Assembly: GCA_963836075.1 (NCBI GenBank)
Contig: CAWIIB010000009.1
Location: 1,952,001 to 2,016,000, forward strand
Direction: 5' to 3'
DNA: 64,000 nt
Source: an uncultured Acidobacteriota bacterium
Lineage (GTDB): Bacteria > Acidobacteriota > JAQAZP01
Notes under the pieces: model-generated
Databases searched by the model: none
The model's input: only the letters and a program-made list of their open reading frames with translations
Told to the model about the DNA's origin: nothing
Made by a program: the position numbers and the translations under genes
Shown here: one piece after another, positions 37,267 to 49,483 of the stretch
How the letters are laid out: the number at the start of each line of letters is the position of its first letter
How positions within the stretch are numbered: position 1 is the first letter of the stretch

Positions 37267-39556
37267 TCAAGGTGTATCGAAAATACCCCCCGCCACCGTC
37301 CCTCCGCAGAGCAGCCCTTGGTCGGCGTAGGCGTCGAACTCGACCACACTCATCGCTTCGGTGTACAGATTGGTGACCCGCCAGGCCGCAACCATGGCCG
37401 GCTCCCGGCTGTCCGGCCCCGGGACGGTGATGATATCGACGATCCCGTCGCCGTGGACGTCGGCGGCGGCCACGCGGACACCGCAGCGGGTGTCGTCATA
37501 CTCGTAGGCGAAGTAGTTCACCTCCGGCATCGCGGTGACCCCGGCGCCGTCATAGTGCCAGCCGCGCACCTGGGCGCCGAAAACGGGGGAGGGGCCCGGG
37601 CCGGTGAGGATCTCATCCCGGCCGTCACCGTCGATGTCGCCGCAGGCCACGTTGACCCCGTATCTCAGGGTGCCGTAGGCGAAGTAGCTGATCCCGGTGA
37701 TCGGCTGTGCCGCTGTACCGTCGATGTTCCAACCACGGACGTGGGGCCCGAACACCGGGCCGGGGCCGGCACCGGTGACGATCTCGTCGATACCGTCGCC
37801 GTCGATGTCGCCGCAGGCTGTGTTGACGCCCCACTTGAGGGTGCCGTAGGCGAAAAAGCTGACCCCGGGGACCGGCTGAACTGCAGCGCCGTCCACGTTC
37901 CAGCCGCGGACGTGGGGCCCGAACACCGCACCGGGCCCGGCGCCGGTGACGATCTCGTCGAACCCGTCACCGTCGATGTCCCCGCAGGCCACGTTCACCC
38001 CGTACCTGTTCGTGCCGTAGGCCAGGTAGCTGACCCCGGGCACCGGCTGGCCAGATGGGCTGAAGCCCCGGACGTGGGGGCCGAAGATGGCGCCCGGGCC
38101 CGGACCGGTGACGATTTCGTCCAGGCCGTTGCCGTCCAGGTCGCCGCAGGCCACGTTGGCTCCCCAGGCCTGGGCCCCGTACGCCGCCCACGATTCGAGC
38201 GGGATCTCGTCGCCCAGCGGATCGAAGCACCTGACCAGCGGCGGATTGATCGCCGCCGGCCCCGGGCCGGTGACCAGGGTCAGCACCGGGTAGTCCAACT
38301 CATCGTAATACGCGTGGAGAAATTCGTCCCAGGCCGTGTCGGCGGGGAAGTCGAGCTCTACCGCTTCGGTACTGCGGGTCGTACAGCCGCCCGCTCCGGG
38401 GAAAGGAAATGCTCAGGCCGCGGGCGTTTTCCTCGATCGACCCATGGCATTCGGCCACCACCGCGGTTTCCATGGCGGTGCGCACCGCCTGGAGGTCGTC
38501 GAGGATCACCGGGTCGTCGGTCAGTCCGGCCAGCTGTTCGGCGAAGTGGTGGACGTCGATCAGGCCGTAACGTTCGGCGCCCCAGAGGCAGAACTCCTGG
38601 GAGCGGTGGCGGGCCAGACGAATCGGATCGACCAGCGTATCGAGGCGGGGGATCAGGTCGGTGGCCAGCTGGTCGATGGCCGCGGCGGCCCCGGCCATTG
38701 CCGAGGTGTCGGTGGCGCTCATGGTCAGGTAGGTGTAGTCCTGATAGTAGTTGTTCTCCCCCACCAGCCGGATGAGCTCCGCCCCCAGCTCCGCGGACGG
38801 AGTGTCCGGCGCGGCAATGAGCGTGTCGCAGAAGCCGTCGAAAATCCCGTTCCAGCGGGCATATCCGCTCAGTTCCTCGCTGCCCACGTAGACCCCCACG
38901 CTCTCCCGCAGTTCGTAGACCGACTCGAAGCAGCCCATCAGGCAGGGGGCGGTGAAACAGAGCAGGTCCACCGGCCCCGCCTCGCCCAGCGCCAGCTGGA
39001 AATCGTTCATGGTCAGGATGTCGTCGCCGTCGGTTTCGTCAACGCAGGCGCCCCGCCAGGCGCCACCATGGTCGTAGCAGGCCAGCAGGTAGCGGTCTGC
39101 CGGGTAGTTTGCCTTCGCGTAGAGCAGGAAATCCCGCAGCGTGTCGGGGTGGCCCATGTTCAACTCGCCGAGGTCGTCCAGCCTGGTCATCTCGTGGTTC
39201 TCACCGATGTGCCAGATGTCGGCTTCCCTGTAATCCCCGTCCCTGAGAACGAGGACGTTGAGATTCGGTCCCGAGTGGGCGTCCCGGGCGAAATCGTTCA
39301 GCGGGTCGTAGGCGTAGTAGAAGTCGGCGTCGTCGTAGAGGAGGATGGTCCAGGTGGTGGCCCCGGGGGAAGGGTTGGGCCGTTCAGGCACTTCCACTGA
39401 CGGGCGGAGTCGGTGGACCGGCCGGTCCTTTGCCTCGAGGACGCGCAGGGAATCGTTCGGCGAGGGGTAGAACCCGCTTCCCCGGATCTCATCCCCCTTG
39501 GCGGTCGGAGGGAGAAGGACGATGGCCAGCAGCAGGACAAAGAGGGTGCGGATCAT
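37267..39556 (-). CDS. Clostripain-like (C11) peptidase with C-terminal module B (apparent frameshift near 38368)
   Basis: ELNMG, DHGGAW and APCLM motifs; removing one C restores collinearity with the paralog at 39553..41748. Confidence 0.82.
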
Positions 39557-41748
39557 TGGAGTGTACCTCCGGCAATGGTTCCCCCGTGATTCAGCCCCAG
39601 GTCGACGTAGGCATCGATCTCGGCCCGGTTGACCGCAATCACGGTACCATTGGACATGCGCCAGGTGAGAACCAGGGCCGGTTCGTCGGGGTCTGGTCCC
39701 GGGACGGTGAGTATCTCGTCGATGCCGTCGCCGTGGATGTCGGCGGAGGCCAGCTGGACACCGTAGCGGGTAAAAGCGAAATAGTAGGCGAGGAAGTTCA
39801 CTTCGGGCATGGGTGAGACCGAGACGCCGTCATAGCGCCAGCCGCGCACGTGGGCGCCGAACCGATTTGACGGCCCCGGTCCGGTGAGGATCTCGTCCCT
39901 GCCGTCTCCATCCAGGTCGCCGCAGGCCACGTTGACTCCCCACCTGTTGGTTCCGTAGGCGAAATAGCTGACGCCGGGGAGCGGTTGGGCCGCAGCACCG
40001 TCCACGTTCCAGCCGCGCACGTGGGGCCCGAACACCGTGCCGGGGCCGGCGCCGGTGACGATCTCGTCAAAGCCGTCGCCGTCCAGGTCGCCGCAGGCCA
40101 CGTTGACCCCCCACTTGAGGGTGCCGTAGGCGAAGTAGCTGACACCGGGGATGGACTGAACTGTCGTGCCATCCACGTTCCAGCCGCGGACGTGGGGGCC
40201 GAAGACCGCGCCGGGTCCGGGTCCGGTGACGATTTCATCGTATCCGTCCCCGTCCAGGTCACCGCAGGCCACGTTGGCGCCATATTTGTTTGTGCCGTAG
40301 GCCAGGTAACTCACCCCCGGGACCGGTTCGCCGGTGGGGCTGAACCCGCGGACGTGGGGGCCGAAGATGGCTCCGGGGCCCGGTCCGGTGACGATCTCGT
40401 CAAAGCCGTCGCCGTCCAGGTCGCCGCAGGCCACGTTGACCCCCCAGGCCTGGACACCATACGCATGAAAATGACCCTGCATGTCGCCGAATTCCACCGG
40501 GTCGAAGGTCCGGACCAGGGGCGGGTTCTCCGCCCCGGGACCGGGTCCGGTGACGATCATCTCCGCCGGCAGGCCCAGGGCGTCGTAGTAGGCGCCCAGG
40601 AACTCGTCCCAGGCGGTGTCGTCGGCAAAATCGAGCTGCACCGATTCATAGGCCGGGTCGTAGAGCGGCCCGCCACGGTGATAATAGACAGAGAGCCCAT
40701 GGGCCCGCGCATGGATTGGCCCGTGGCACTCGGCCACCACGGCGTCGTCGATGGCCGCTTGAACGCTCTCCAGGTCCTGGAGGATCACCGGGTCGCTGGT
40801 CAGGCCGGCGAGCTGATCGCAGTAATCGTGGAGATCCACCATGCCGAGGTGGTCCGCATACTCCTCCCCCATTTCGTGCGACTGGTTGCGGGCCAGCCGG
40901 AGCTCATCGGTGAGTGAACCGAGGCGGGGGATCAGGTCCTGCCCCAGTCTGTCCACGGCCGTGGCAGCCACGGTGGTGGCGCTGGTGTTGACGGCGCTCA
41001 TGGTCAGGCGACGGTGGTCCTCCCAGTAGTCGTTTTCATCCACCAGCCGAATGATGTCCGCCCCGATGCTTGCTGACGAGTCATCCGGGGAGGAAATGAG
41101 CCGGTCACAGATATCGCCCATGATCTCCAGCCAGTAGATGTAGCCGCTCAACTCTTCGCTGCCCACGTAGATGTCGACGCAGTCCCGCAGCTCGTACGCC
41201 GATTCGATGGCGCCCATGTTGCACGGCGCGGTGAAGCAGATCAGGTCCACCCCCCCGGCCGCGGTGAGTGCCAGCTTGAAGTCGTTCATCGAAAGTTTGT
41301 CGTCGCCGTCGGTGTGGTCGCGGCACGCCCCGGACCAGCCTCCGCCGTGACCGTAGGCGGCCAGCAGATGGCGGTCGGCAGGATAGTGTGTCTTGCCCCA
41401 TTCGAGGAAGGAGAGCAGGGTGTCGGGGTGGCCCATGTTCACCTCGCCCCAGTCCTCGAGGTGGGTCAGTTCGTGATTCTGGCCGACGTGCCACAGGTCA
41501 GCCGGTCCCGCATCCCGGTCCCGCAGGACGATCACGTTGAGGTTCGGCCCTGAGTGGGCGTCCAGGGCAAAGGGCTCCAGCGGATCGAAGGCGCTCTCAA
41601 AATCGGCGTTGTCGTAGAAAAAGAGTGTCCAGGTGGTGCCGCCGGGGGATGGTTCAGACGCCGCAGCGGGAGCGCAGACAAGCAGGGCCAGAACCAGGAC
41701 GGCGGTGAGATTCATCCGGCTCAGAAAGCGCGGGGTAAAACGTAGCAT
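39553..41748 (-). CDS. Clostripain-like (C11) peptidase with C-terminal module B
   Basis: EVNMG, GHGGGW, APCNM, GSEE and GLSVY motifs; GDLDGDG repeats. Confidence 0.85.
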   Translation of the reverse strand: MLRFTPRFLSRMNLTAVLVLALLVCAPAAASEPSPGGTTWTLFFYDNADFESAFDPLEPFALDAHSGPNLNVIVLRDRDAGPADLWHVGQNHELTHLEDWGEVNMGHPDTLLSFLEWGKTHYPADRHLLAAYGHGGGWSGACRDHTDGDDKLSMNDFKLALTAAGGVDLICFTAPCNMGAIESAYELRDCVDIYVGSEELSGYIYWLEIMGDICDRLISSPDDSSASIGADIIRLVDENDYWEDHRRLTMSAVNTSATTVAATAVDRLGQDLIPRLGSLTDELRLARNQSHEMGEEYADHLGMVDLHDYCDQLAGLTSDPVILQDLESVQAAIDDAVVAECHGPIHARAHGLSVYYHRGGPLYDPAYESVQLDFADDTAWDEFLGAYYDALGLPAEMIVTGPGPGAENPPLVRTFDPVEFGDMQGHFHAYGVQAWGVNVACGDLDGDGFDEIVTGPGPGAIFGPHVRGFSPTGEPVPGVSYLAYGTNKYGANVACGDLDGDGYDEIVTGPGPGAVFGPHVRGWNVDGTTVQSIPGVSYFAYGTLKWGVNVACGDLDGDGFDEIVTGAGPGTVFGPHVRGWNVDGAAAQPLPGVSYFAYGTNRWGVNVACGDLDGDGRDEILTGPGPSNRFGAHVRGWRYDGVSVSPMPEVNFLAYYFAFTRYGVQLASADIHGDGIDEILTVPGPDPDEPALVLTWRMSNGTVIAVNRAEIDAYVDLGLNHGGTIAGGTLQ

Positions 41749-43704: not shown

Positions 43705-46575
43705 GTGAAACTGCTCAGATACAGCTTGCTGGCTCCTGCTCTGTTGATCGTGGCCCTGCTGGCCGGACCGGGTGATCTCCTTCAGGAGATGGCCGCCGGC
43801 GAGCACCGGCTGACCGAAGTCCAGCGGGAAGCGACCCTCCTGGCGCTGGAAGAAAAGCGGGCCCGGCTGGAAGCGCGGAAACTGAAACCGATGGACCAGC
43901 CGCAGGAAGCGGCGGAGTTCTTCCTCCAGCAGCGGTTGGAGCCGGGGCAGGACAAACTGCCGGTGGGGCGGATGCGGGCGGAGCTGGAGGGGATCAAAGC
44001 TCGTGAAGCGGCACTGGCTGGTGAGGACCGGGAAAGGGGACCGGGCGGCATCTCCAGCTGGCAGTCCATCGGGCCGGGCAACATCGGCGGCCGCACCCGC
44101 TCCATCGTCATCGACCCGGACACCCCCGACACGATGTACGCGGGCGGGGTGGCCGGCGGGATCTGGAAGTCCACCGATGCCGGGGCCAGCTGGAACGCGG
44201 CCGACGACCTGATGCTCAACCTCAGGGTCTGCGCCCTGGCCATCGACCCCACCAATACCAGTGTGCTCTATGCCGGCACCGGTGAGGGTGTGTTCAGCGG
44301 CAGTGGCACCGGAGGCCTGGGCATCTTCAAGTCCACGGATGCCGGGGCCAGCTGGAACCAGTTGGCCGGGACGGTGAGCGGCGTGCCCGAGGGTGCGTTC
44401 AATTTTGTCAACGAGATCGTGATCAGTCCCAATGACTCCAGCCGCCTCTACGCCGCCACCCGCACCGGGGTCTGGCGCAGCACCGATGCCGGGGAGAACT
44501 GGTCCCACCTGCTGGGCAACCCGCGGCATCTCTCGGGCCCGTACAACTCCAACGGGTGTGTGGTGGGCTGCAGCGACCTGGCCGTGCGCAGCGACCGCAA
44601 CCCGGACACGCTCTTTTCCGCCTTCGGCATCTACGAGTCGGACGGGCTCTACCTCTCCGAGGACGGCGGCGACTCCTGGATCGGTTACACCACCGGGCCG
44701 GAGCAGGGCCGGATGGAGATCGCCATCGCGCCGAGCAACAACGACGTGATCTACCTCACCATGGCCGACAACGGCACCGCTGTCCAACTGGGGCGGCTGA
44801 TCAGTGTCTTCCGCGCCGACGACGGCCTGAACTTCAGCGCGGTACTCGACCTGGAACACCCCTTCAGCCCCTGGCTGTTCAGTTACCTGGCCATCGCCAC
44901 CGGCTGCTACGAGCACCCGACAATTTACTCCCAGGGATGGCACGACAATGTCATTGCGGTGGATCCGATCAACCCGGAGATCGTCTGGGTGGGCGGTATC
45001 GACCTGTTCCGTTCAGATGACGGCGGCCAGACCTTTGGCCTGGCCAGCTACTGGTTCTACTTCCTCTGGGATCCCCAGCCCGCCACCTATGTGCACGTGG
45101 ACCAGCACGAGATCGTCTTCCATCCCGGATACAACGGCCTCAGCAACCAGATCATGTATGTGGGCAACGACGGCGGCGTGTGGCGCACGGCCAACGCCCG
45201 GGCCGCCACCACCGAGGAGGAGTGCCCCATCGGTCCGGACCCCGGCCCGCCGCCGGAGATCGTCTGGGAGAACATGAACAACGGCTACGGGGTGACCCAG
45301 TTCTACCACGGCGATGCCGCCCTGACAGCCGACCGCTTTGTGGGTGGTGCCCAGGACAATGGTTCGGCCCAGGTGCTGTCTGCCGGGACCCCGGACAGCT
45401 GGGAATACGTGTACAGCGGCGATGGCGGGTACGTGGCCATCGACCCGCGGGACGACCGGCACTACTTCGTCGAGATCCAGGGCTTTCCCACAATCGCCGA
45501 AACCAACAACGGCGGTATCTCATTCAGTCCAGCGGTAAACGGTATCACCGACACCGACGGCATCTTCATCAACCCCTTTGCCATGGACCAGTCCAATCCC
45601 GACGTCATCTGGACCGGCGGCCGCCGCCCCTGGCGCACCATCGATGGCGCCGGCCTGTGGGAGCTGGCCGGGCCCAATTTCAGCGGTGCGGACAGACTTA
45701 CGGCCATCAATATTTCCCCGGCGGACAGCAACGTGGTCTGGTTCGGCTTCAACAACGGTTATGTGGCCCGGACCACCAACGGTCTGGCCGAGAAGCCGGA
45801 CTTCGAGGTCTTTGCCAACGGCCTGCCGGGCGGGTGGATCAGCAGCGTGGCCGCCGACCCGGTGGACACCGAAACGGCTTACTGCACGATCTCCTCATAT
45901 GGCGTGCCCCACGTGATGAAGACCACTGACGGAGGCAGCAACTGGGCCTCCATCGACGGCATCTCGGTCACCGGCGTGCCCGACATCCCGGTGCACTGGA
46001 TCGCCGTCCGTCCCGGCAACCCGCAACAGCTCTACGTGGGCACCGAGTTCGGCGTCTTTGCCAGCGACGATGGCGGGGGAACCTGGTTCCCGGCCAACAC
46101 AGGGCTGGCCCACACCATCGTGGAATCTCTCGACTGGAAGGATCCGGACACTCTGGTGGCCTTCACCCATGGCCGCGGGGCCTACGTCACCCACCTGGAT
46201 AGCATCGCCACCATCGATGCGGCCCTGGTCTGTGAGCCCTCCACCGGCACCCTGCCCTTTGTCACCCAGCTGTGGGTCACCCTGGGCAATCTCTACGCCG
46301 GGCAGACCCGGCGGGTGGCCGCCCGTCTGGATGTGCAACTGGCCGCGGGTGCCTACTTTCCGGGATGGCGCGCGGGATACACCAACATCGGTCCCGGGGG
46401 CAGCTATTTCACCTCCTGGAACCAGAACCTCCCGGCCCTGGGTACACTGGTGGGAGAGAACGTCTTCACCCTGGCTGCCGAGGACGTGACGCCGTCACCC
46501 TACAATCAGCCGCCCTATCCGCCGGCCGGGGATACCTGCACTTCGCAGCAGATTTTCACTGCTCTGGCGCCCTAA
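43705..46575 (+). CDS. Secreted BNR/VPS10-like propeller protein (glycosyl hydrolase-like) with C-terminal module A
   Basis: GPGNIGGR, repeated SxDGGxxW Asp-boxes, HVDQH, GGAQDNG and THGRG; ends TALAP. Confidence 0.85.
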   Translation: MKLLRYSLLAPALLIVALLAGPGDLLQEMAAGEHRLTEVQREATLLALEEKRARLEARKLKPMDQPQEAAEFFLQQRLEPGQDKLPVGRMRAELEGIKAREAALAGEDRERGPGGISSWQSIGPGNIGGRTRSIVIDPDTPDTMYAGGVAGGIWKSTDAGASWNAADDLMLNLRVCALAIDPTNTSVLYAGTGEGVFSGSGTGGLGIFKSTDAGASWNQLAGTVSGVPEGAFNFVNEIVISPNDSSRLYAATRTGVWRSTDAGENWSHLLGNPRHLSGPYNSNGCVVGCSDLAVRSDRNPDTLFSAFGIYESDGLYLSEDGGDSWIGYTTGPEQGRMEIAIAPSNNDVIYLTMADNGTAVQLGRLISVFRADDGLNFSAVLDLEHPFSPWLFSYLAIATGCYEHPTIYSQGWHDNVIAVDPINPEIVWVGGIDLFRSDDGGQTFGLASYWFYFLWDPQPATYVHVDQHEIVFHPGYNGLSNQIMYVGNDGGVWRTANARAATTEEECPIGPDPGPPPEIVWENMNNGYGVTQFYHGDAALTADRFVGGAQDNGSAQVLSAGTPDSWEYVYSGDGGYVAIDPRDDRHYFVEIQGFPTIAETNNGGISFSPAVNGITDTDGIFINPFAMDQSNPDVIWTGGRRPWRTIDGAGLWELAGPNFSGADRLTAINISPADSNVVWFGFNNGYVARTTNGLAEKPDFEVFANGLPGGWISSVAADPVDTETAYCTISSYGVPHVMKTTDGGSNWASIDGISVTGVPDIPVHWIAVRPGNPQQLYVGTEFGVFASDDGGGTWFPANTGLAHTIVESLDWKDPDTLVAFTHGRGAYVTHLDSIATIDAALVCEPSTGTLPFVTQLWVTLGNLYAGQTRRVAARLDVQLAAGAYFPGWRAGYTNIGPGGSYFTSWNQNLPALGTLVGENVFTLAAEDVTPSPYNQPPYPPAGDTCTSQQIFTALAP

Positions 46576-46709: not shown

Positions 46710-47540
46710 ATGGCTGAAAACGACCTCCTCGGAAGATTGGTGAGCAGCGTCATGAGCGAGCGCCAGGCCAAGGTGTACCTGGCGCTGCTTCAGCGTGGCC
46801 GTGCCACGTCCGCCGAACTCCAGCGCGACTCCGGTATATCCCAAACCAAAATCTACGAAACCGTCCGTTTCCTGGTCAGCCGCGGATTCTGCCGCGAGCA
46901 GAAGATCGGCAACCGGCGGGTCTACGAAGCGGTGGACCCCGGGGCTGCCCTGAAGACTGAAGAGGGCCAGCTCCAGGAGCGGATCAAGGAAATCAGCCTG
47001 CTGGCCGGTGACCTCTCGCACCTCTACTCAGCCGCGGACAAGGCGGCCACCCCCATCGAGTTTATCGAGCTTCTCAACGGCACGGAGAGCATCCACCGCC
47101 ACTACTGTGACCTGGTGCGCGGCTCCAGCGGGGAGCTGCTCGGTTTCGGGCGGCCGCCCTACGCCTGCAACACCAACTCCAAGGTCAAGGAACAGCTGCG
47201 GGCCTACAAACGGTTCATCAACGGCAAGGGCAGCTCGCGCTGGGTCTTTGAAATCGACATTCCGGAGAACAAGGTGGCGGTGTCCGCGGTGCAGCAGATG
47301 CACGACCTGGGCATCGACATCTGCGTTTCCGCGTCCCTGCCGTTAAAGATGATGGTCTTCGACAGCAGCACGGTGCTCTTTGCCCAGGAGGGTTCGCTGA
47401 TGAAGCCGGGCGAGCTGACCATGGCCAGCATCCGCAACGGCGCCATCGCCAACGCCTTTTCGGCACTGTTCGAGTATTTCTGGCAAACCTCCATTCCCTA
47501 CGAGGAGTGGTTGAAGAGGGCGCCCCAGGAGGGGCATTAG
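46710..47540 (+). CDS. TrmB-family transcriptional regulator
   Basis: AKVYLALL...ISQTKIYE winged HTH and a PLD-like sensor domain (PLKMMVFD). Confidence 0.85.
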   Translation: MAENDLLGRLVSSVMSERQAKVYLALLQRGRATSAELQRDSGISQTKIYETVRFLVSRGFCREQKIGNRRVYEAVDPGAALKTEEGQLQERIKEISLLAGDLSHLYSAADKAATPIEFIELLNGTESIHRHYCDLVRGSSGELLGFGRPPYACNTNSKVKEQLRAYKRFINGKGSSRWVFEIDIPENKVAVSAVQQMHDLGIDICVSASLPLKMMVFDSSTVLFAQEGSLMKPGELTMASIRNGAIANAFSALFEYFWQTSIPYEEWLKRAPQEGH

Positions 47541-47661
47541 AGGCGAAAATCGTGACACCTGATCTCCTGCGGTGGGGGACCGGTGAGTAAATGGTTCCGC
47601 CGCGAGTTTCTTAACCTGCGACACCGCGAGAGTGCGGTGCGCGAAAAGAGGAGGGAATCGA

Positions 47662-49410
47662 ATGGCAAGGTGGCTGTGCATCAAGCTGCCGTCGGTGATT
47701 CTCCTGTCCCTGCTGCTGGTGGTTGCCTCGGTGTTTTCCGGGGCAGCATTTGCGGCGGAGGATCTGGAGATCATCCAGGCGGTGAAGAACGGTACCCCCG
47801 TTTCGGGGGGCAATCGGGTGGTCATGGGCGAGGTGTTCGCCCGCGACGGCTGAGCGTACTGTCCCTCTGCGGAGCAGGGGATGATAGACCTCTTGGCCAA
47901 CTTCGGTGACGACGAATTCGTCTGTGTCATGTACTACTCCACCAGCGGCTGGTCCTGCCCGGAGCACGGCGACCGTGCCGGTCTCTACGGTGTGAGCGGT
48001 GTGCCCGACGCTTATTTCAGCGGTTATCTTAACTCTCTCGGCGGGCTGCCCAGTGGCTCGATGTATGACTACTACCTGCCCCTGGTGAACCAGGTCATGG
48101 CCAATCCCGGTATGTTGGCAATGTCACTGGACATGACCATCGATGCCGGTACCATCACCGTCAACGGCACCATCGAGGCCCTGGAAAACGCCCCCGATGC
48201 CCTCGTCTACGTCGTGGTCTACGAAGAGGACTCGGGCCGTGAGCCGAACCTGGCCCGTGGCTTCCCGGTGTGGGAGACCATGCTCACCGCCACCACCACC
48301 GGCGCGACCCAGGACATCAGCGGCACCCTGGCCGTGGGCACCGGCTGGAACGAGGCCAACCTCCACGCCATCATGTTTGTCCAGGCCCTGCAGGACTTCA
48401 CGGCCACCCGGATCGTCACCGGTCCCGGCCCCGGCCCGGACAACGTCTGCCGCCTGGCCGCCTGGGTCCCGGAGAATCCAGGCACTGCCGACGTGACCAT
48501 CAACGCATACGGCGTGGACAAATACGGCGTCAACGTGGCCGTGGGCGACCTCACCGGCGATGGCTTTGACGAATTCCTCACCGGTCCCGGACCGGGCGCG
48601 GTCTTCGGCCCGCAGGTGCGCGGTTTCAACTACGAAGGCGACCAGCTCCCCGGCCTCAGCTATTTTGCCTATGGCACCCTGAAATACGGGGTCAACGTGG
48701 CTGCCGGCGACTTGGACAATGACGGTGTGGCCGAGATCCTCACCGGCGCCGGACCGGGCGCGGTCTTCGGCCCCCACGTTCGCGCCTGGAAGTACAACGG
48801 CAGTGAGGTGAGTTCCATGCCGGGGATCAGTTACTTCGCCTACGGCACACCAAAGTATGGTGTAAACGTGGTCTGCGGTGACATCGACGGCGACGGTTTT
48901 GACGAGATCATCACCGGTGCCGGACCGGGCGCGGTCTACGGCCCGCACGTGCGCGGCTGGAACTACGACAATGACACCCTCACCTCGATTCCCAGTGTGA
49001 GCTTCCTGGCTTACAACACCAACAAGTTCGGCGTAAACGTGGCCTGCGGTGACATCGACGGTGACGGGATGGACGAGTTGATCACCGGTGCCGGCCCCGG
49101 CGCGGTCTTCGGGCCGCACCTCCGTGGCTGGAACATCGACGGCGGTACGGTCACGGCCATTTCCGGAATCAACACCATGGCCTTCGACTACACCGAGTGG
49201 GGTATCAATGTTGGTTGTGGAGACGTGGACCGTGACGGCATGGACGAGATCTTTGTCGGTGCCGGTCCCGGCGAGGCCCACGACGCCTGGGTCCGCGGCT
49301 TCAACTATGACGGCGGCACGCTGGAGATGGTGTATGACTTCACCGCCTACGGCGCCCCGGTCATCACCCACGGTGTCAACGTGACCTGTGGCTACTTCTT
49401 CGCCCCGTAA
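47662..49410 (+). CDS. Secreted selenoprotein: Omp28-like thioredoxin domain (UAYC) with C-terminal module B (582 aa, Sec64)
   Basis: ORFs 47632..47853 and 47881..49410 are in frame: RVVMGEVFARDG-TGA-AYCPSA; YGVSGVP cis-Pro motif; GAGGAGG RBS and signal peptide. Confidence 0.88.
47861..47882 (+). promoter_or_regulatory. Putative bacterial SECIS hairpin
   Basis: GUCCC-U(bulge)-CUGC-GGA-GCAG-GGGAU starting 7 nt after the UGA. Confidence 0.7.
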
Positions 49411-49445: not shown

Positions 49446-49483
49446 CGGCGGGTGGGCCCCTTCGGGTCCACCCGCCGTTTTTT
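49446..49483 (+). terminator. Intrinsic terminator
   Basis: 14-bp GC stem, CTTC loop, T6 tail. Confidence 0.88.

Follow-up and report, generated by a model that had tools for sequence, protein, structure and literature searches.

An in-frame UGA in the gene for a probable exported selenoprotein with a thioredoxin-fold head and an FG-GAP propeller from an uncultured Acidobacteriota bacterium

The locus and its reading frame

The window, by which we mean the whole 64,000-nucleotide stretch of DNA analysed here, comes from an uncultured Acidobacteriota bacterium (assembly GCA_963836075.1, contig CAWIIB010000009.1, positions 1,952,001 to 2,016,000 of the forward strand), and coordinates given without a contig count from its first letter. 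The genome to which it belongs, termed G000, amounts to 6.23 Mb in 10 contigs and is 94.7% complete, with 4.6% contamination. The analysis establishes the recoding signals of one gene in this window, the selenocysteine (Sec) machinery of its genome, the Sec/Cys homology of its active site, and its predicted fold and domain order. Features of the gene, and the copies of its Sec domain elsewhere in the genome, are collected in Table 1.

Table 1. Features of the selenoprotein gene (window coordinates) and copies of the Sec domain in G000 (contig and approximate position)
Feature	Position	Strand	Basis
Shine-Dalgarno sequence GGAGG	47650..47654	+	7 nt 5' of ATG 47662; direct sequence reading
Predicted signal peptide, residues 1-31, probable cleavage after AFA (A-x-A)	47662..47754	+	sequence features
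Predicted thioredoxin-fold domain, residues ~53-147, cis-Pro loop at P115	47818..48102	+	AF2 model and profile matches
UGA almost certainly read as selenocysteine U64, first residue of the U-A-Y-C redox motif	47851..47853	+	24 TGA homologues; others Cys
Cys67, putative resolving Cys of UxxC	47860..47862	+	invariant column in 46-sequence alignment A3 (C36 in mature numbering)
SECIS-like hairpin, 7-bp stem, begins 10 nt past the UGA	47864..47880	+	fold and pairing in homologues
Predicted seven-strand beta-sandwich, residues ~152-242, second half of the Omp28/HBP35-like module	48115..48387	+	model and Foldseek
Predicted six-bladed FG-GAP beta-propeller with DxDxDG loops, residues ~247-580	48400..49401	+	Pfam and model
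TAA stop of the selenoprotein gene	49408..49410	+	sequence
Terminator-like GC-rich inverted repeat, then TTTTTT	49447..49483	+	sequence reading
Sec-domain copy 1 (the window gene), EVFARDG-U-AYCP	C9:1999.7 kb		
Sec-domain copy with the same architecture, FSRDGUAYCP	C1:680 kb		
Sec-domain copy, FSRTSUPYCP	C1:1062 kb		
Sec-domain copy, FTATWUPNCP	C9:2706 kb		
Sec-domain copy, TATWUGYCP	C9:3141 kb		

Read with translation table 11, the locus consists of two ORFs in the same frame, the first running from 47632 or 47662 to 47853 with a signal-peptide-like N-terminus, and the second from 47881 to 49410, encoding 509 amino acids. The codons from 47845 to 47865 are GAC GGC TGA GCG TAC TGT CCC, placing the TGA at 47851-47853 within EVFARDG-U-AYCP. 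Reading through this TGA yields a single frame of 582 amino acids on the plus strand, from the ATG at 47662 to 49410 (translation MARWLCIKLPSVILL...EVFARDG-U-AYCPSAEQGMIDLL...). The initial annotation had proposed that the in-frame TGA links the signal-peptide ORF to the 509-residue ORF, and both the sequence and the same-frame read-through bear this out.

Could this TGA simply be a stop? In that case either a short ORF with the signal peptide would precede an independent 509-residue gene that begins at ATG 47881, or a nonsense mutation would have disrupted the gene. A GGAG lies a few bases 5' of ATG 47881, and TGA is a common stop in the genome; within the window it ends 7 of the 15 ORFs between 35359 and 60389, where it is, as had been claimed, an ordinary stop and not a reassigned codon. 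The public gene calls take the same view of the locus. The call for the window's gene (P0002) consists solely of the 509-residue piece, and nine further related database clusters, of 502-521 residues, all have their start 3' of the TGA; the expectation that annotation pipelines would cut the gene was thus correct. Against a true stop stands the 509-residue product itself, which would be left with no signal peptide, no beta-strand 1 and no thioredoxin active-site residue. The comparisons below, in which TGA recurs at the same codon in 24 homologues from 9 genomes, Cys forms run uninterrupted through this point, and the 5' part evolves as coding sequence in that frame, make us regard a true stop as very improbable.

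The UGA as a probable selenocysteine codon

G000 encodes the full set of genes for which the initial annotation had suggested a search: selA (562.8 bits), selB (365.7 bits), a pair of selD genes (a single in-frame TGA in each), and a tRNA-Sec (74.7 bits; called by ARAGORN as tRNA-SeC with anticodon tca). The tRNA-Sec lies on a contig other than that of the window, and ARAGORN found no tRNA in the window.

We then looked at the UGA column across homologues. Orthologues in two genomes of the same genus align across the TGA, over residues 1-253 (80% identity) and 1-245 (71% identity). Among 301 sampled genomes of the phylum, the domain occurs in 74, and 27 match rows contain one TGA; the codon was read in 26 of these, the row left out (G001:C267) being a partial match. 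TGA occupies the first position of UxxC in 24 homologues from 9 genomes (five each in G000, G001 and G002, three in G164, two in G050, and one each in G035, G290, G255 and G279). The rows G290:C137 and G043 are Cys forms whose TGA falls outside the gene. Seven Cys forms were read at the UGA column, including FTATWCQYCP, FTATWCGYCP, FTGADCGPC and FTGSGCGPC, so that the column holds TGA or Cys, as predicted for a true Sec position. A phmmer search of 1.84 billion representative proteins returned 493 homologues (E up to 0.001), and most of the best 149 of these carry E.FT.ATWC.YC at this place, in agreement with the Omp28-type motif ExFTxxWCxxCP invoked by the initial annotation. Some 16-18 of the database homologues, judged from their protein records only, start immediately after the motif, as expected of truncated Sec forms.

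Both flanks of the TGA evolve as coding sequence. In the 96 nt 5' of it, differences at first, second and third codon positions number 3/4/9, 7/2/12 and 10/6/19 for three orthologue pairs, and are thus mostly at third positions. The 96 nt 3' of it show the same pattern; for G000 and G002 the counts are 2/1/6, against 3/4/9 upstream.

A further explanation is that the TGA is an assembly or sequencing error, the real codon being TGC or TGT. The genome is apparently a metagenome-derived assembly, with the contig number and contamination given above, and errors of this kind would be conceivable in it. However, contigs from four runs of four studies (three of them other metagenome studies) span the codon, and none has a listed difference at 47851-47853, with many on both sides (18 less-supported differences are unlisted); moreover, the other four paralogues in G000 and their orthologues also have TGA at this position. 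We consider such an error hardly credible. In the contig of one relative, 16 differences fall within 47727-47817, and 47818-47909, where the TGA and the hairpin described below lie, is free of them. This contig, the one from an RNA library that spans the TGA, counts 27 differences over 367 nt; it may reflect DNA carry-over, and we do not take it as evidence of transcription.

Our conclusion is that the TGA at 47851-47853 is almost certainly a selenocysteine codon, because the genome has the Sec machinery, the position is TGA in 24 homologues and Cys in others, both flanks are coding, a hairpin recurs downstream, and TGA is an ordinary stop in the neighbouring genes. The checks that the initial annotation had named as able to refute this reading all went in its favour.

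A SECIS-like hairpin downstream of the UGA

The features sought by bSECISearch are a stem-loop just 3' of the UGA and a G in the apical loop, and both are present here. The arms of the hairpin are CCUCUGC (47864-47870) and GCAGGGG (47874-47880), enclosing a GGA loop (47871-47873), and in the minimum free energy fold a 2-nt A-U bulge in the 3' strand separates off a lower stem of 5 bp. A hairpin with a bulged U and a G-rich loop had been described for this site; the hairpin and its GGA loop stand, while the bulged U lies in the lower stem, which is unconserved in the paralogues.

Taken alone, the fold is modest (z = -1.98 for 76 nt, equalled by 8 of 200 shuffles), and it is because the hairpin is conserved across homologues that we place it above chance. 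All 12 aligned Sec forms have, at the same place, a stem of 6-7 bp with a loop that begins with G (GGA, GGC, GUA or GGUC), whereas the four Cys forms in the same comparison fold otherwise, reaching -6 to -12 kcal/mol; it is important to note that GC-rich sequence folds readily and that the Cys control is imperfect. RNAalifold applied to all 12 Sec forms did not recover the stem, returning a different stem of 4 pairs without covariation, because the register of the stem shifts by 1-2 nt between paralogue groups. We therefore counted pairs on the seven closest Sec forms, which share one register, and scanned every sequence singly. In the seven, 49 of 49 cells are paired, with one compensatory change from U-A to C-G (three sequences against four), and the pairing score is matched by 15 of 500 shuffles. 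In the wider scan, from which L062, L064, L065 and L066 were excluded, a stem of six or more base pairs under a G-first loop occurs in 19 of 22 Sec forms as against 2 of 6 Cys rows; one of the two positive Cys rows is invalid, the CxxC of L042 having been mis-picked in its signal peptide.

A search of 47400-48300 against Rfam (E up to 10) gave three weak miRNA or snoRNA matches only, all far under their gathering scores, a result that is uninformative on SECIS elements. The two selD genes of G000 (G000:C4:17381-18301 and G000:C9:892330-893256) are themselves selenoproteins, with the motif SGGU-AAK. Their SECIS-like hairpins are near-identical to one another and comparable to that of the window gene, having 9-bp stems and a GUC loop slightly farther from the UGA.

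Domain architecture

The frame opens with a basic N-terminal end, a hydrophobic core and a candidate cleavage site between AFA and AE, all read from sequence features, and a similar layout (AMA before AE, or VWA before AN) is found in five orthologues and paralogues. The protein would accordingly be expected to be exported.

The part that follows was modelled with AF2 from the 46-sequence alignment (pLDDT 91.7), giving a beta-alpha-beta-alpha-beta-beta-alpha core and then a sandwich of seven strands. In a search of PDB with the family profile, the matches were Atu2684 (2axo, 1.2e-9), HBP35 (5y1a, 1.2e-8) and two archaeal thioredoxins, and in all of these the U column aligns with the first active-site Cys of CxxC and Pro115 with the cis-Pro. 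Cys67 and Pro115 are invariant in the alignment (C36 and P84 in mature numbering). The predicted structure, together with alignment to 1nho and 1fo5, shows the marks of a thioredoxin fold, namely the order of the core elements, (C/U)xxC at the N-terminal end of helix 1, and the cis-Pro loop. Foldseek gave HBP35 (5y1a) as its top match (E 3.9e-8, TMq 0.71) and also found the Omp28 domain 2r2c (TMt 0.67). Profile, model and Foldseek thus agree with the initial annotation in assigning the N-terminal module to an Omp28/HBP35-like type with a thioredoxin fold.

The C-terminal part, previously designated only as 'module B', can be given an identity as an FG-GAP propeller by Pfam, by the model and by the PDB folds it resembles. 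FG-GAP_3 (58.3 bits) and FG-GAP (51.8 bits) both match above their cut-offs, in five stretches each. In a model of the whole mature protein (pLDDT 81.3, pTM 0.64) there are six four-stranded blades, the final strand closing the first blade, and among PDB folds the closest fits are Kelch and designed SAKe propellers, likewise six-bladed (TMt 0.65-0.74). The arrangement of the domains is uncertain at this pTM, and we leave the contact between head and propeller uninterpreted. The propeller resembles those of the FG-GAP and integrin-alpha type in having repeats above the Pfam cut-offs with DxDxDG loops, but it is six-bladed in the model, whereas the propeller of integrin alpha has seven blades.

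Relatives of the selenoprotein

The top NCBIfam match is NF045500, 'Omp28-related selenoprotein' (E 1.2e-10), where residues 45-244 align with model positions 32-256 of 377 and the model is unmatched beyond position 256. The score, 41.4 bits, misses the curated cut-off of 200 bits, and the 16 possibly truncated database homologues fare similarly (none pass; best 91.9 bits). Pfam PF11551 (Omp28) was also missed, at 12.5 bits (E 0.13) against a gathering threshold of 34.9. The defining trait of NF045500, UxxC in a thioredoxin-like fold, is present in the window gene.

NF045500 corresponds, in the table of a 2026 review, to 'Hypothetical protein GOS_C' with the motif UxxC (PMC13188914). GOS_C was described by Zhang and Gladyshev in 2008 from 74 Sec and 312 Cys sequences, as a thioredoxin-like fold of unknown function with UxxC and a SECIS-like element (PMC2398784). 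The window gene shares with GOS_C the thioredoxin-like fold, the single Sec in UxxC, the many Cys homologues and the SECIS-like hairpin after the UGA. It differs in carrying a six-bladed FG-GAP propeller in place of the C-terminal part of the NF045500 model, and in its source, GOS_C having been drawn from ocean-surface reads and the window gene from a sediment lineage whose genomes have five paralogues each. Because its score is so far under the NF045500 cut-off, we place the window gene, on profile comparison, as a divergent branch of the NF045500/GOS_C superfamily.

Among proteins of solved structure, HBP35 of P. gingivalis (5y1a) and Omp28 (2r2c, PF11551) share with it the thioredoxin fold followed by the beta-sandwich module, and the EVFTAEWCGYCP motif aligns with the motif of the window gene. 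HBP35 differs in having Cys instead of Sec and a C-terminal domain for Por (type IX) secretion where the window gene has a propeller, and identity between the two is 14%. The DsbA-like, DsbG-like and thiol:disulfide interchange selenoproteins likewise have Sec for the first Cys of CxxC in a thioredoxin fold and are expected to be extracytoplasmic; they belong to other Pfam families, and PMC9312934, in the tables consulted, lists no Omp28-type beta-sandwich or FG-GAP propeller for any of them.

In the literature we searched, we found no paper that treats Omp28 and selenoproteins together, and no description of a fusion of a selenoprotein to an FG-GAP propeller. We regard the novelty as modest, consisting of the propeller fusion and of the fact that each genome of this uncultured genus has five paralogues; there is neither a new recoding mechanism nor a new kind of selenoprotein here. 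The description of the architecture as unusual accordingly holds for the fusion and the paralogue expansion, but not for the Omp28-like UxxC selenoprotein itself, which is of a known kind.

Paralogues and gene neighbourhood

Five copies of the Sec domain occur in G000, each with one TGA, and these score 29-50 bits against NF045500. The fifth paralogue (L056, G000:C9:3141464-3142186) has an open frame of ~865 amino acids, with a Sec-thioredoxin head, a long middle, and FG-GAP at the far C-terminus only. In each of the three genomes of the genus, the gene immediately before the FSRTSUPYCP paralogue (L025, G000:C1:1060459-1063896; also L052 and L053) encodes a ZnuB-like metal ABC permease (94-100% identity). 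Seen in one genus, such shared gene order argues only weakly for a functional link. A search for loci related to the window gene by a single domain returned three.

Directly upstream of the selenoprotein gene, and co-oriented with it, is a TrmB-like regulator (46710-47540, +), which may control it. The regulator also adjoins both orthologues at 90-91% identity and is better conserved across the three genomes than the selenoprotein (71-80%). A sulfatase and a BNR protein are likewise kept as neighbours of the orthologues.

Elsewhere in the window, an FG-GAP module is fused to a C11 (clostripain) peptidase (39553-41748, -), and the adjacent ORFs are a second C11 peptidase (38300-39556, -) and a stand-alone FG-GAP protein (37267-38298, -). 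Different exported enzymes in this region make use of the propeller module. A domain of ~115 amino acids with Cys near both ends (…CEPSTGTLPF…YNQPPYP…C…AP) closes the BNR/sortilin-like protein at 43705-46575. The same domain ends two of the Omp28-like selenoprotein paralogues (L024 1003-2283, -; L025 1225-2757, +) and their orthologues, at 38-54% identity, and exported proteins seem to share it as a C-terminal module. The secreted C11 peptidases and the BNR protein of the window bear the same scaffolds as the selenoprotein heads. In a database protein of 1724 residues (P0016), residues 120-167 of the query, a 48-residue stretch of the beta-sandwich, are matched 14 times in tandem.

Proposed mechanism and function

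We propose that 47662-49410 is one gene for an exported selenoprotein of 582 amino acids, in which SelB and tRNA-Sec decode the UGA with the help of the hairpin, and in which a thioredoxin fold, a beta-sandwich and a propeller follow one another with Sec64 as the redox site; we put the probability of this reading at about 0.88. In the mechanism we envisage, SelB and tRNA-Sec would insert selenocysteine at UGA 47851, guided by the hairpin 10 nt downstream, and removal of the signal peptide would leave the mature protein with its three domains, the last a six-bladed FG-GAP propeller. Sec64 would occupy the position of the attacking Cys of CxxC, with Cys67 as the resolving residue and Pro115 forming the cis-Pro loop. 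Outside the cytoplasm, Sec64 would attack a disulfide or another oxidised sulfur substrate, and Cys67 would resolve the resulting mixed selenosulfide, while the propeller might anchor the enzyme or hold its substrate. Catalysis, the substrate, the final location of the protein and the re-reduction of its site are elements that we infer, and the 'oxidoreductase' and 'surface' labels of the initial annotation should be worded in the same conditional manner.

There is a second way to read a genuine Sec codon at this place, which is that UxxC serves to bind or convert a metal, heme or chalcogen species (hemin, polysulfide, selenium or arsenic) outside the cell, the propeller being a lectin-like ligand binder. 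The nearest solved structure is that of HBP35, an exported protein on display at the cell surface, which binds hemin, is required for growth when hemin is scarce, and shows a thioredoxin activity in vitro for which its two active-site Cys are needed (PMC2907840); since HBP35 binds hemin, a binding role is possible for the selenoprotein too. The paralogue that follows the ZnuB-like permease in three genomes of the genus would suit such a role, as would the finding of near-identical contigs in runs labelled as sediment and salt-marsh metagenomes. However, a gene order shared by one genus carries little weight, and the full thioredoxin signature, with (U/C)xxC at the start of helix 1 and an invariant cis-Pro, best fits redox exchange. 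We therefore hold the binding role as a tentative alternative, well short of even odds, and favour the exported Sec-dependent redox enzyme.

Biological significance

The locus is a clear example of a selenoprotein gene cut at its UGA by public gene calls, since all ten related clusters start downstream of it. Without the signal peptide and the active-site residue, which the truncation removes, these calls would pass for cytoplasmic FG-GAP proteins. The gene also extends the GOS_C/Omp28-related superfamily from ocean-surface reads to a sediment lineage, and adds to it a new domain architecture and a five-fold expansion of paralogues.

A broader proposal, which we consider unlikely on what is in hand and offer as speculation, is that the genus runs a modular set of extracytoplasmic selenoenzymes, in which a head of Sec-thioredoxin and beta-sandwich, present as five paralogues, is mounted on interchangeable scaffolds (the FG-GAP propeller or the ~115-residue Cys-flanked domain). 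If these scaffolds were a lineage-specific system for surface display or substrate capture, the head's part would be selenium-based redox chemistry in sulfidic sediment, with external sulfur compounds or protein disulfides as its targets. The selenoprotein is in any case a tractable candidate for studying the role of selenocysteine outside the bacterial cytoplasm.
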